Counted from the first letter of the stretch, positions 5,954-59,893 are shown. The stretch is DNA of 64,000 nt from Eledone cirrhosa (GCA_964016885.1 OZ024745.1:35960001-36024000), one strand, 5' to 3'. A program made the numbers and translations. Notes: generated from the letters alone by a model not told the origin.

Positions 5954-6218
5954 GAAGTAAGCTATCGCCGTATTTTGACTAAAGAAATTAAAGAAATTAT
6001 TTAGCCTGATACTGGGGTTAAGAACCCTCGGAGAAATGGAAAAAGACGAGTATTGACGTACATGTACGTCAATACTCGTCTTTTTCTATTTCTCCGAGGG
6101 TTCTTAACCCCAGTATCAGGCTAAATAATTTCTTTAATTTCTTTAGTCAAAATACGGCGATAGCTTACATTTCTAATAATTTCAAACCCACTCGCTGTTT
6201 CGAAAATATTCTTACTTG
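5954..6218. repeat. (TA)n-flanked 212-bp spacerless palindrome with a right-hand extension
   Basis: Arms 5957-6062 and 6063-6168 with one mismatch seen; centre GTACATGTAC; unique extension to 6218, then (TA)n. Confidence 0.95.
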
Positions 6219-7710
6219 ATATATATATATATATATAATATGAAGCATTTTGAGATATATGTTTGATCATCTAAGATTTGGGCGTGTCACTATATTGCAA
6301 GTTAGACACACAGCTGTGATAACGGTCGTAAAATAACCAAAATGACATTTACACTTTTACCTTATATTTTATGCTGAAGACCTGTAATTTAAAGAAAATG
6401 AGTATGGAGTGTAATGTTTTCAGTCACTTATTTCTACCCTTTTTCATACTTGCTTTTCTAGATTGTTTCTAACATACATATACGAGTATATAAACGGGGG
6501 ATAAAAATGCAATAAAAGCCAATATTTGGTAGCAACCTAACACTTTCAATATTTTAGGGAATATAATATACAGAGAAAAAGTTAAATACGTGGGCATGTT
6601 TAAGGATATACAAGATTAAACATCTGACACGCAAAGAAGAAACCTAAACGTATCACCCCAGAGAAATATCGCACAACTCTATTAAAAAGCAATACTGATA
6701 TTGAAAGCTTAAGCAATTGTATATTATTTTGTATACTTAAATTTAGAATAATATATTCTGTCAGATATGAATTACAATCCGTGGAAATACAAAGGATGTT
6801 TTTCGATAGGTTTTCCTTCACTATCGATATCAGATAAACAATTACTTGTTTATAAATAAAAGAGGCATTAACGTTTGTATTAGAATTTTCTTTTCATATA
6901 TTATAAGGATGACACGATGCCCAAGATATTAATATATTTACAGAAATGTTAATATCAATAATGTATAAATGCCCTTTATTTGTAATTGTATTCAAGTTAC
7001 AAGCAATTAGATAGAAAGGTGTGGTAATAAGGAAACAATTCTCATAGGAAAATTAAACTTAAACAATTACAGTGAATCTAATAAACAGCGATAGTTCCAA
7101 TTTGCCAGAGAGAGGTATAAAATTGTAGTGAATGTGTATTACAGGTCAGAAAAGTAATATGATAAATTTCTGACAGGAAACTGTATTTTCAAAACTAAAA
7201 TATAGACGAGAATATTTGCTGTTCAGTGTATGCCGTCATTATCAGAAATGCTTCTTATACAGAGACAAATGGCAGAAGATACTGCAATGGGGAATGTTGC
7301 TGATGTTATCTCTGTTAAGGTCATGGTATACGATTGATTTAACCGAAGTTAAATTTTGATTTGAAGGAAAATTAATATAGAACCCGCATAGATGAAAATT
7401 TGCAAATTACGTTTTGTAACACAATGTCAGATCATGGTTAGAAAGCTATTACGAGCTAATATGCCATTTGGGGAAATTTAAAGGCGAGATCTTCATATGT
7501 GCTGATATATAGACGACAGGGTGCAAATAGCACCACAATAGAAGAATGAGAAAAAAACTAATGAAATGAAAAAGAAATGTAGCGGACGAAATAAAATATA
7601 GAAAACTGCGAAGCATAGACAATGGTGAGGATAGGAAAGGACTAATGTTTTCCAATGATAAAGTAGCAAACATCTACTACACAGTCTCCGCAATACATAG
7701 ATATTATAAT

Positions 7711-7770
7711 TGTTTCTACTTTAGGCACAAGGCCAGCAATTACCCAGTGCATTACTGGTATTTTATTTTA
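7711..7770 (-). mobile_element. 5'-truncated SINE (3' ~60 nt)
   Basis: TGTTTCTACTTTAGGCACAAGGCCAGCAATTACCCAGTGCATTACTGGTA matches the SINE tail at 56079. Confidence 0.85.
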
Positions 7771-9087
7771 TAATATTACTGAAGAATACTTGAAAAGTCA
7801 ATCTACCATTACAAATGACTTCATACTCCCAATAAATGTTAGACGCCAAAGTCTCTGGATTTTGTTAGTGTTTATCACCATATCAATCTTAATTAATTAT
7901 GAACAATATTAAACAATTTGGTAATTAGTATCCTGTTGCTTGTATGGGTGAGAATATGTCTTGTTCCTTTTTAAGCAAAATTGGGTGTGATTTCATGTAA
8001 TGCGACTGATATTTGTAGCAGCCCTAACAGCAAATTAGAGGCGCTTTCAACGATTCTCACTAAACTTTACAATGTATTTATTACTTACTTGGCCTACCAA
8101 TATTTTCTTCAGATTCTGTAACTTGGATTACATTATCCAGTGTATAGAAATACGTCTAGTGCGTGATTTGAACATGATTCTGTGGTCATTTCTAACATGT
8201 TACTTTCATCTACTAATGAGTCATTATGCATGTCATTTCTGCTTATTAACAATCCATCATAGTGAACATTAGGCTTCGCCTTTAAGGTTACAAAATATAC
8301 CATTAGTAATTAGTATCATTACCCTCAATGCTGACGTTTGATGCGCATTGTAAAACTGTTCACCTATGTATCAGTGTCACTACTAGTGTTGCATTTGCTC
8401 CATTTTAAAACATTTGATTTTTATGCTCATTAAAAATAGAAACCAATATTACAAAGGATTTCTAACCGGTGATACACAATTCTTGAATTATTATCGCTTG
8501 ATTAAATTCTACCTTGTATACTGTTTGCACTCATGAGATGAGCTGTTTACTTGATATTCAGGAATGTATTTTCCAGATGGCTTATTCGCTACAACCTGAC
8601 AAGTTAGCCGGCAGTATTATATTTTTACCAATACTGTAGGTACTTGAAAGTCACACGTCTTCATACTTTTCGGAAGTAAATTTATTTGAGTGTTGATTTA
8701 TTCTTAAAACTCTCCTTTAGTGATTAAAAATAGACTAATTACGAATTTTCTTGAATATTACAATTTGCATTATACGAACTTCGGTACAACCACTTTTCAT
8801 TGACTTATTGGAAAATTACTCTCCTAATTATGTGCAGTAAATTGCTTGTTCGCCAGGTACATCAGGTTTAAACTAAACTTTAAATGCACTTGTATATTGC
8901 GATACTTATTTTCTGCTTTGCTTGAATTACTCATTATAATAAAGGTTTTATAAAATGAAAAACAAATTACTTTGGAAATAAATATGAAATTATAAACGAT
9001 GCCTATCTTATGGCAGCCTTCCTGTGAACAATTATATATTATGAATAGAGCTAATATGTATGGGATTTGTTTGTTATTCTACCGTTA

Positions 9088-9429
9088 TCTCTATATATAA
9101 AACTGAGGATGTCTGTCTGTGTGTGTGTGAGTTTGAACCCCTATAACTAAAGAAGCAACTACCGACTGTTTTCAAACTTTACACATGTAATACTTATGCT
9201 TCAGGGTGTGTTCTGAGCAAAAACATTTCAAATTTTCCCACTCATTCCCCAAACAGTTGGTAAGTGCACACAACTTCCTCCTCACGTTTTAAGCCACAGT
9301 GTTGCTTACTTACGTACCAACAGACCCTTAATTCTTTGCCAGCCGTGGTTGTGGCAATACTAAGCTTAGCTAAGGCGGTTATATATTTCACAATACCTTA
9401 TCCCGTGCAACGCCGGATACCAGTGCTAG
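9088..9429 (+). mobile_element. Non-autonomous Helitron, short variant
   Basis: Starts A|TC(TCTATATATAAAACTGAGG) and ends in hairpin CCCGTGCAACGCCGGA followed by CTAG|T. Homologous to 10551-11486. Confidence 0.85.
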
Positions 9430-9454
9430 TTTTCAATAACAACAGAACCGTATA

Positions 9455-9765
9455 GAGTCAACCCCCGGTATTCGCGGTCCCTGTTATTCGCGGAATTTTC
9501 ATTAGAATGTAACTAATAATTGTTCGTGGAAACCACCACATATTCGCGGAATCATAAATATCTTCCGCGATTTTTTAATGGCTTTTTCTGTGCAATATAT
9601 ATATATTTCACGCTTTTTAATTATTAATAACAATATATCGTATTTACCGGCCTATATATATCGTTATATGTTGACGTTTATAGGCATTTTTATGAACCAC
9701 GTCCAAAATTCCCGGTTTTTCACTCCTGGCTGGTGCTCTAGGAAAGTAAAGCCCGCGAATACCGG
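9455..9765. mobile_element. pogo/Tigger-like MITE, right end truncated
   Basis: TA followed by (G)AGTCAACCCCCGGTATTCGCGG. A 13-bp inverted repeat lies at 9465-9477 and 9753-9765, with internal TATTCGCGG subrepeats. Confidence 0.6.
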
Positions 9766-57972: not shown

Positions 57973-58572
57973 TATATATATATATATATATATATATGAT
58001 GGCTGCCCCCTCGTTATAGAGTATGGCCATTGCACGATATACCATTATTAATAATTATTTATTAATTCTATCGTGCTATGCCTCTGCGTGAAGATATTTT
58101 TTAAAGTGAGGAAATACAGTACACTGAGCCAATCCCACTCTCTGAGCGACAGTAGCTAAAACCCCAAAAGAAGAAAAGGTCAACATCATCTGTAATTACT
58201 GAGCCGCAGGTTTTTGATCGGAGTTATCCCAGCTTCCTGAGTTGCCTTCTCCTAGAAGAATGCCCTGACAAAGGCTAGGGGGTCTTTCACTTGAGAAACA
58301 ATGGTGCGTGAAAAGTACCTGCTGAGACAGTAATGGTTTGGAAGTTATGACATGGACAGATTTTATGGTTAAACTGAAATCCGACTGTTTTTATTATCCA
58401 TTAACGTTTTCCGGATTTATCTGCGTCACTATGTAACCGCATGGCGCCACGTTCGGTATTTGACATTCCCCTCTCATTCTATCCCCCCCCTCTCTCTCTC
58501 TCTCTCTCTCTCTCTATATATATATATATATATATATATATATATATATATATATATATATATATATATATA

Positions 58573-58928
58573 AAGAAAAAAAGATGAAATCGAAAATGCA
58601 ACTGGAGTCTTATTTTTTTTTAAATATATATATTTATTTGGTTCCTTTACCGGTTTCGCAGTTCTTCTGCTTTTCAAATGTAGAGTTGAGATGGAGGGTC
58701 TGTGGTTTTTTCTCACATCAGATGTGAGAAAAACCACAGACCCTCCATCTCAACTCTACATTTGAAAAGCAGAAGAACTGCGAAACCGGTAAAGGAATCA
58801 AATAAATATATATATTTTAAACAAAATAAGACTCCAGTTGCATTTTCGATTTTATCTTTTTTCCTTATACTTTCTCTCGTGTAGGACACCTCGGTTATTT
58901 TTCATTTTGTAAAGAAACCTCACTTTCT
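58573..58928. repeat. (TA)n-flanked ~295-bp palindrome with right extension
   Basis: Centre CACATC-A-GATGTG at 58720. The right arm contains a hammerhead-like 3' half, GAAA-CCGG-TA. Extension 58870-58928. Confidence 0.93.
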
Positions 58929-59041
58929 TATATATATATATATATATATATATATATATATATATATATATATATATATATATATATATATATATATATA
59001 TATATATATATATATATACACACCACATATACACACACACA

Positions 59042-59617
59042 GACACCTTCTGCTACCTAGGTGACCGAATTAACAGCGCAGGTGGCTGTTCGGAAAGTAC
59101 AATAATTAGGGTAAGAACGGGATGGAAGAAGTTCAGGGAACTACTAACACTGCTAGCCGCAACTCAAAATGATAGGCAGACTGTATGATGAGTGTATACG
59201 AACAGCAATGTTACATCGTAGAGAGACCTGGGCGCTGTCCGTGGAAGACTTGCGTAGATTAGAAAGAAACGAAGCCTGCATGCTCCGATGGATGTGTAAT
59301 AGTAATATACGCGAACGGCAAAGCATAAACGAATTGAGAGAGAGACTGAGCATAAGAGGAATCAAATGCTGTGTGTAGGAGAGGCGGTTGCATTGGCATG
59401 GACATGTGATGCGTATGAAGGATAACAGTTGCATAAAAATGTGCAGAGCACTAGCAGTCGATGGAAACCGCGGAGTGGGGGAGACCCAAGCCAGAATCCG
59501 TTCCCATATGAGCAAGGCATGGTCAGCCGACCGGACACTGCCCACAAAAGGACAACCCGTCTAACCCATGCTAGCGTGGAAGAACGGACGTAATACGGTG
59601 ATGATGATGATGATGAT
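59042..59617 (+). mobile_element. RTE LINE 3' end with (GAT)n tail
   Basis: FCYLGD..SAGGC....RVRTGWKKFREL, GRLYDECIRTAML..ETWA....RRLERNEACMLRWMC and RRLHWHGHVMRM, ending in TGATGATGATGATGA. Confidence 0.9.
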
Positions 59618-59698
59618 ATATATATACATACATATATATATATATATATATATATATATATATATATATATATATATATATATATATATATATATATA

Positions 59699-59893
59699 GA
59701 TGAGATTCTACAGGACTAGAACTGTTTCATTCATTAGAAATCATCAGGAATCACAAAGATTCCTGATGATTTCTAATGAATGAAACAGTTCTAGTCCTGT
59801 AAAATCTCATCTATATTAAAACTTTTATATTCTGCTATGTATTGAGTACCTTACTTACTGTGGTTACCTCCGATTCAACCCGGAATAACGTAC
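59699..59893. repeat. (TA)n-flanked palindrome with hammerhead-like core and right extension
   Basis: Arms 59699-59752 and 59758-59811 around loop ACAAA. CTGATGA-tttctaatgaat-GAAA at 59763-59785; extension 59817-59893. Confidence 0.9.

Follow-up and report, generated by a model that had tools for sequence, protein, structure and literature searches.

Paired short and long 3' ends of Penelope-like inserts in the (TA)n repeats of Eledone cirrhosa

Introduction

How do ten inserts lying in simple (TA)n repeats come to share one geometry, with two inverted arms that both read outward into the repeat and one arm that always ends farther along than the other? The question is raised by a 64-kb stretch of the Eledone cirrhosa genome (OZ024745.1:35960001-36024000, from an assembly of 3.0 Gb), called the window here at its full length, which has 34% GC and abundant (TA)n. 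The geometry, described in a first-pass annotation, is real: the arms are inverted and point outward in ten of ten inserts. We consider it likely that the inserts are endonuclease-containing (EN+) Penelope-like elements (PLEs) together with non-coding dependents, and that reverse transcription is primed from both 3' ends of a cut (TA)n, each using one of two fixed internal sites; these two sites are probably on the same RNA. The pairing of a short with a long end is itself a real and regular feature, and is part of the known anatomy of PLEs.

Two recurrent 3' ends and their pairing

The inserts were lettered A to J by their order along the window, and a genome search indicated that every one of them belongs to a multi-copy family. 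One query was used per family: for E the entire insert, for F the arm rather than the body of the open reading frame (ORF), and for G a query that overlaps the tail. Of 199-3044 first-look candidates 40 were scored and 30 loci returned for each family; all family counts below refer to these sampled loci, which are the copies most similar to the window inserts. A second batch, fetched after the pairing rule had been set, consisted of 80 extra loci and longer stretches of 20 E copies, 18 of which had been seen before.

The 3' ends of each family recur at two positions, both of them followed by (TA)n. The nearer is termed the short end (S) and the farther the long end (L), and the stretch between them is the tail. 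The proposal that both ends of a cut (TA)n are joined to 3' sequence of the element is supported. One of the two ends had been taken for the terminus of the element; this does not hold, because L is internal, and read-through copies continue past it in A, B, D, E, H and J. In G the read-through is a single copy (L283) that may be flank, and the L statistics exclude G. Both S and L of family B fall inside the first 30 codons of the ORF.

Outside the window, 148 of the 154 classifiable pairs are S+L, four are L+L and two are S+S; nine more have an alternative end. In the first sample alone 99 of 104 pairs were S+L (binomial p ~1e-23, independent choice giving about half), and the second batch alone contributed 35 S+L, three L+L and one S+S pair, with four that have an alternative end. 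Family A follows the rule in 21 of 22 classifiable pairs. Loci L111-113 in a satellite array and pairs with at least 16 nt of internal TA were omitted from the counts, and near-identical J inserts were merged. A first automated pass, which included eight window inserts, had given 107 S+L, three S+S and two L+L pairs; the three S+S pairs were miscalled F tails, which start with TA. One L+L pair (L350, G000:C3:34063700-34069000) lies in a symmetric structure of 4.7 kb that has S+L pieces of E mirrored at both ends, and it looks like an inverted duplication of an insert.

The pairing is not universal, as single-arm copies of the same families occur in the window and elsewhere. Those with TA on their 5' side account for 11 of 58 arms in I, 5/67 in J, 7/64 in A and 4/61 in F, a few of them doubtful. 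The inserts and single-arm copies of the window are as follows.

A, 5954..6218: spacerless insert; short-ended arm 5954-6062 (minus strand), tailed arm 6063-6218 (plus strand), arms 96% identical; non-coding family with a tRNA-like head, a tandem unit of ~270 nt and a tail of ~38 nt
B, 17010..18513, plus strand: PLE 3' part with the C-terminal region of the reverse transcriptase (RT) and GIY-YIG; S at 18513; tail ~54 nt
B, 17010-17091: inverted tailed arm of 80 nt, containing the first ORF codons
B, 17560..18099, plus strand: GIY-YIG endonuclease frame (PF01541, E=0.00037, under the curated cut-off)
B, 4961..5681, plus strand: single-arm S-ended copy, no inverted partner found
B, 53368..53444, plus strand: single-arm L-ended copy between two TA runs
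C, 29290..30544: short-ended arm ~29290-29491 (minus strand), tailed arm with 3' untranslated region (UTR) ~29490-30544 (plus strand), arms 94% identical; family tail ~153 nt, of which 46 nt are deleted in the window copy; Hydra-type endonuclease upstream in relatives
D, 39702..39993: older palindrome, arms 75% identical, tail ~62 nt; neither ORF nor intact hammerhead found
D, 40013..40057, minus strand: tail-only copy that faces the same (TA)n as the D insert, tail to tail
E, 43141..44746: short-ended arm 43141-~44296 (minus strand), 1160 nt including the spacer; arms 98% identical; full-length relatives ~4.3 kb with a Hydra-type ORF of 830 aa
E, 44290-44746, plus strand: tailed arm of 457 nt, tail ~164 nt
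F, 50320..53055: short-ended PLE body 50320-52887 (minus strand, 2.57 kb), tailed arm 52887-53055 (plus strand, 170 nt), arms 93% identical; tail ~84 nt; predicted type I hammerhead close to the S end; left end outside (TA)n
G, 56937..57088: mini-palindrome, arms 81% identical, tail ~75 nt; hammerhead-like fold in the longest relatives only
G, 62321..62470, plus strand: single-arm L-ended copy between two TA runs
H, 57144-57206, minus strand: tail-only inverted arm of 63 nt
H, 57204-57971, plus strand: tandem non-coding body with a 528-nt unit, a type I hammerhead fold in each; ends at S; tail ~110 nt
I, 58573..58929: spacerless palindrome, arms 96% identical, tail ~62 nt; hammerhead fold with a U3/A8-type core; centre at the putative transcription start
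J, 59699..59893: spacerless palindrome, arms 87-90% identical; because there are two S sites, the tail measures either 62 or 76 nt; each arm has a minimal type I hammerhead fold, and the centre coincides with the putative start of transcription; pseudo long terminal repeat (pLTR) of a Hydra-type ORF

The extension of one arm beyond the other had been put at 45-100 nt; the range across families is 38-165 nt. Two end points also change. The long end of E is at 44746, which is 65 nt beyond the reported 44681, and the motif at 57559, which had been assigned to the short arm of H, is the long end of that family, the short end being 57971, so that the two arms had been swapped.

Identity of the elements

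The attribution of the inserts to PLEs is borne out by PLE-like ORFs in five families (B, C, E, F and J), but no ORF is linked to the other five. B has matches to RVT_1 (E=3e-5) and GIY-YIG (E=4e-4), both under the curated Pfam cut-offs. The E ORF has a YRDD motif, and its GIY-YIG part gives E=0.001; the entire ORF has no Pfam match at E<=0.01. It has 563 homologues, the top one of which bears PF01541, and pairwise BLAST between it and a neighbouring PLE ORF is not significant. C, F and J match E by tblastn (E 1e-12 to 1e-29), and B barely does so. Several features of the Hydra clade can be recognized by eye in E, namely RWR (for RWK), DKT, CxCx5C, and CxxC plus CxH flanking E and N, and it is on this reading of motifs that E is labelled Hydra-type. 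The linker and CxxC are also present in C and F. The nuclease of B, judged by eye as well, is of the CCHH type; B lacks the Hydra-clade motif set and has little similarity to E. On these comparisons the S+L rule covers at least two PLE lineages. Partial tandems, in which a pLTR runs into the ORF start, are found in read-through copies of B (L156), E (L334, L337, L344) and J (L116), and tandem units are found in A and H.

Hammerheads were sought in the arms by a custom motif search against shuffled sequences, for which the means were 0-0.3. Type I folds are predicted in 22/29 arms of E, 36/50 of F, 23/39 of H, 27/38 of I, 22/42 of J and 12/37 of B; they are scarce or lacking in G (3/44), C (1/31), D (0/24) and A (0/42). 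In the first six families the predicted fold is 7-140 nt upstream of S. Variant cores include TTGANAA, in which U3/A8 replaces C3/G8, in I and G (58760-58795; L279, L280), and CCGAAGA in E. An Rfam search of the window and insert J returned no hammerhead; there were only sub-threshold matches, mainly to microRNA families on the palindromes.

The 528-nt unit of H is non-coding and has the hammerhead motif in successive units, an arrangement shared with non-LTR retrozymes. In A, ARAGORN calls a tRNA in three of seven loci, and in most copies truncation has removed the head. Neither a partner ORF nor a hammerhead or shared hairpin was found for A, and only the S+L geometry links it to PLEs; it (L080:1434-1507, L366:975-1360, window 5954-6218) is a candidate PLE-dependent short interspersed element (SINE).

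A separate observation concerns loci L111-L113 (G000:C28:30671964-30682979), an array of a 78-bp satellite whose monomer is the J hammerhead, from just above the putative start to S. Joints related to this satellite are also seen in read contigs.

Sequence features of the two ends

The modal overlap of S with the TA alternation, taken by hand from the listing of ends, is 2 nt in A, 4 in B, 3 in C, 2 in D, 6 in E, 5 in F, 3 in G, 5 in H, 4 in I and 1 in J. The supposition that short-arm ends are enriched at TA motifs is upheld by the sum over the ten families, 35 nt, compared to 9.7 expected at random position and phase (p=2e-5) and 17 at the better phase (p=0.0014). Positions 30444 and 39923, which had seemed to fit poorly, do fit at the family level, as relatives show TAT and TA there. 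The overlap at the L end of E, added later, is 2 nt. The TA runs themselves are not clearly different at the two ends (median 21 at S and 26 at L, p=0.11).

In C, D, E, F, G and J a hairpin with the pattern RCTC-stem-TTGAGY follows S at a distance of 6-12 nt, with a shuffle rate of 0.5-1.3% per family; H has a compensated variant after S, and the motif recurs after L in E. The site would seem to be positioned by structure, with short pairing as a finer adjustment.

The S end also displays added repeats. In family E, where S follows a CTCT motif, (CT)6-38 stands between the element and (AT)n at 11 of 25 S ends, compared to none of 21 L ends and none of 31 long-arm matches with the internal CT motif (some loci being counted twice). 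Elsewhere (CT)n occurs at S ends of I (4/25), C (2/26), D (one) and G (one), and (AC)n at some L ends of A, C, D, F and H. A mirror repeat on the partner flank accompanies one of 11 CT cases and one of seven AC cases, close to the baseline, which for CT is 13/202, and TA-CT-AT sandwiches make up six of 129 CT-AT compounds. Since mirror repeats and sandwiches are both rare, the (CT)n tracts are probably not a split or duplicated target, and the compound-repeat flanks examined revealed no target duplications. The simplest reading is that (CT)n at S would be a short template re-copied by a slipping primer, with later growth of the tracts possible. That the L1 RT slips in poly(A) is noted in PMC3649969.

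The inner ends of the arms offer a further clue. In I 40 of 58 arm 5' ends, and in J 39 of 67, lie within 6 nt of one point, which is 30 nt below a TATA-like box and has a CCAGAT context that we take to be initiator-like. Two cDNAs that run off the same RNA end would give a symmetric centre without any fold-back, and thus the pile-up near the TATA box explains the spacerless palindromes. In A, the 3' side of the tRNA-like head is the stopping point of 34 of 64 arms. The inner junctions mostly have an overlap of 0-5 nt or a few extra bases.

A proposed course of insertion

The favoured reading can be laid out in five steps. First, the GIY-YIG nuclease would cut both strands inside (TA)n. Second, one DNA end would prime at S and the other at L, with an RNA hairpin fixing the site and 1-6 nt of UA pairing fixing the register. 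Third, the unstable primer would at times slip and re-copy a dinucleotide, so that (CT)n is added. Fourth, the cDNAs would extend toward the 5' end of the RNA, a distance of just 60-260 nt when the transcript is pLTR-promoted; often both would stop at the same point and yield a spacerless palindrome, and the L-primed cDNA would either displace the S-primed one, which gives duplicated arms, or stop at or before S, which gives no duplication. Fifth, joining of the two cDNA 3' ends would involve 0-5 nt of overlap or leave a few additional bases. One end priming alone would leave a single-arm copy.

A bolder version, which we put forward tentatively and would not yet wager on, has a dimer carrying out twin priming on one RNA: it would bring the two cut DNA ends to two structure-marked sites, one short and one tailed, extend both as far as the RNA 5' end and, during initiation, reiterate short motifs of the template in a telomerase-like manner. 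This process would write palindromes, (CT)n/(CA)n and perhaps longer (TA)n across the 3-Gb genome, and the tRNA-headed SINE-like family would use the same machinery.

Weighing the alternatives

The nearest alternative is a variant of the favoured reading, and the confidence we place in it is part of that given to the whole. Twin priming would occur on two separate RNAs, held asymmetrically by the dimer. This would also be expected to give one S and one L end and to let either arm be the longer, and a fixed start site would give symmetric centres without a shared RNA. However, the arms share subfamily variants even though several subfamilies coexist. In 65 of 75 cases an arm resembles its partner more than it resembles other inserts on average. 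Also, some L arms stop at S. Five of them, across families, end within -3..+6 nt of the partner S; in J six arms begin in the S zone and no arm begins within the 40 nt upstream of it, and such L-arm stops are absent in I. These comparisons lean weakly toward one shared RNA for both arms, and we regard two RNAs as unlikely, although worth keeping in view.

In a second alternative, for which self-priming has been suggested (cf. PMC3846280), a single tail-primed cDNA would fold back, copy itself and join the other target end through TA microhomology. Symmetric and L-longer pairs, short palindromes at many centres, notably in A and G, and variants shared by the two arms speak for it. Arm reach speaks against it. 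Of the 108 pairs examined, 83 remain once 11 unresolved and 14 tandem H pairs are taken out. Among these, 41 are symmetric, 17 are L-longer and 15 are S-longer, and in ten the L arm gets no farther than the tail or S; the window copies of B, E and F are S-longer. For D the palindromic references left the arm lengths unresolved. Fold-back of an L-primed cDNA leaves the S arm contained in the L arm, and so the 25 pairs in which S reaches beyond L, or L never reaches S, need two RNA-templated syntheses. Fold-back also does not account for single-arm copies that end at S, or for (CT)n at S, which resembles slippage at initiation. The first-pass annotation had left double priming and cDNA snap-back side by side; double priming is favoured by the arm reach, and snap-back in its pure form is incompatible with those 25 pairs. 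As a general explanation we consider fold-back quite improbable, and it may yield a share of the symmetric inserts.

The suggestion that S and L mark positions where the endonuclease cuts a DNA intermediate of the element ("EN-mediated resolution" in PMC8557442), with the TA motifs as nuclease substrates, is no more attractive to us and we doubt it. The TA motifs of S and L alike agree with the preferred target, family B has an identical AATATCG context at S and L, and the Anolis protein, in what is available of PMC11167929, cuts AT-rich element DNA. This suggestion leaves three things unexplained, which are the added (CT)n at S, the fixed offset of the hairpin and the RT starts mapped in vitro at the tail borders (PMC11167929).

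Although short palindromes in TA look like miniature inverted-repeat transposable elements (MITEs), we find it hardly credible that the inserts are MITE-like units of fixed form with asymmetric terminal repeats, or that they arose as artefacts of fold-back in the assembly, in view of the PLE ORFs and predicted hammerheads, the copy-to-copy variation in length and inner junction, the asymmetric arms of 75-98% identity and the fixed family ends at more than 150 loci.

Regarding the first half of that idea, insert lengths range from 190 to 555 nt in A, 63 to 1590 in B and 912 to 5300 in E, and the inner junctions vary too, so the inserts are not fixed units; the first-pass annotation was right not to take them for MITEs. 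The constant interior and symmetric terminal inverted repeats of a MITE or DNA transposon are lacking, the ends being asymmetric. Regarding the second half, the arm divergence of 2-25%, the asymmetry and the recurrent family ends argue against fold-back chimeras in the assembly. Reads over 55000-62000 are dominated by other copies. At the E junction a contig run has zero coverage at 44273-44286 and reduced-representation runs have about one read each, with no empty allele among them.

Returning to priming at two fixed sites by both target ends, several observations weigh against it. No ORF could be linked to A, D, G, H or I, and six pairs are of the same type. No empty allele or target-site duplication can be read within (TA)n, and we infer the double cut; likewise, the start sites are deduced from sequence. 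In vitro, the cleaved DNA and the start site are without homology (PMC11167929, as far as its accessible text goes). In J, A and D the most frequent S end overlaps TA by only 1-2 nt, and the L overlap is weak, with a sum of 13 over five families compared to 4.8 at random phase (p=0.017) or 8.3 at the best phase (p=0.1). The hairpin motif was not found after S in A, B and I, or after L in A, B, D, G and J. The 58 pairs that are symmetric or L-longer can be explained just as well by fold-back. Finally, the case for the same RNA consists of a slight excess, noted post hoc, of L arms that stop at S and of an arm likeness that gene conversion could give, and the partner arm is the single best match in only 33 of 75 cases.

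Relation to known systems

The comparisons in this section refer to the accessible parts of the papers cited. Much of the layout has been described for EN+ PLEs: an inverted 5'-truncated copy, a tail at one end, head-to-head palindromes and (TA)n targets are all in print (PMC8557442, PMC3846280). Therefore, the novelty first claimed for the inserts was overstated. The inserts resemble the elements of PMC8557442 (Fig. 2) and Pen2a_Av and its relatives (PMC3846280) in their inverted arms, one-sided tail, partial tandems, junction palindromes, pLTR hammerheads and (TA)n targets. They differ in their tails, which measure 38-165 nt in Eledone and 30-40 nt in the published cases, and in what is seen here: a counted S+L pairing, TA overlap at S, centres at the putative start and (CT)n at S. 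Self-priming and nuclease resolution have been proposed for the inverted arms (PMC3846280, PMC8557442), and the origin of these arms and of the one-sided tails is called unresolved (PMC8557442, PMC11167929).

With the Hydra clade (PMC8557442), whose EN is C-terminal, family E shares the motif set and the (TA)n targets, and C, F and J are homologous to E. The E unit of ~4.3 kb (L337), however, has long UTRs, whereas Hydra elements are generally below 3 kb.

The closest biochemical parallel is Poseidon of Anolis (PAc, PMC11167929). Its protein cuts and extends both strands in vitro and is predicted to be a dimer; two internal RT starts bound a tail near the ORF start, and the targets are AT-rich. 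In PAc the starts lie in an AC-rich stem-loop without target homology, whereas the Eledone sites overlap the target by 1-6 nt of TA. In its accessible text the PAc study does not allot the two sites to the two strands, one apiece.

The H family is reminiscent of the animal non-LTR retrozymes (bioRxiv 10.64898/2026.07.22.740005), with tandem non-coding units, a type I hammerhead fold in each and a presumed dependence on PLEs. Unlike what is described in the available part of that report, H inserts have S+L inverted ends like those of the coding families, which points to target priming.

We found no published statement of one site per target strand, of run-off at the start site or of slippage tracts at PLE ends, in a search of mainly freely accessible literature without supplements.

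In the twin priming of L1, reportedly described by Ostertag and Kazazian in 2001, both target strands prime on one RNA and the 5' part becomes inverted. The second site there is said to be a chance internal match, with pieces that do not overlap; in contrast, the second site in Eledone is fixed and the arms are usually duplicated.

Other features of the window

Several further features of the window deserve mention. An eleventh TA-flanked family is represented by two single-arm copies (47147-47325 and 53117-53293) with a canonical type I hammerhead motif on the minus strand. A high-copy interspersed repeat of ~190 nt occurs at 2719-2915, 21231-21419, 40244-40431, 52076-52265, 56076-56261 and 56415-56612, with one copy within the F ORF. 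Decayed ORFs at 12877-13638 and 785-1180 are DNA-transposase-like by eye and have no significant Pfam match.

Tail-to-tail inverted duplications of flank centred on (TA)n are found at 42917-43004, 39953-40053, 29200-29244/30682-30726 and 58283-58514/60013-60244, and in two of these later inserts are nested in the TA. In a 19/22 test such duplications pass at two of 78 TA runs of the window and at 30 of 3382 in the fetched loci, about half of the latter being low-complexity. They are possibly due to self-priming of cut (TA)n ends.

Conclusions

The layout of these inserts was already known, and the results strengthen a described system rather than reveal a new one. What is added is breadth, with ten families, two lineages and a tRNA-headed dependent, along with a counted pairing rule and a (CT)n mark of initiation. 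A near-strict S+L rule, a slippage mark and a common stop lead to predictions for the in vitro system, concerning strand-specific starts, one RNA or two, and repeat addition. For the Eledone genome, the results would imply that a large class of its MITE-like and microRNA-like palindromes are by-products of retrotransposition, and for PLEs in general, they provide a clue to how a poorly understood class of elements inserts.

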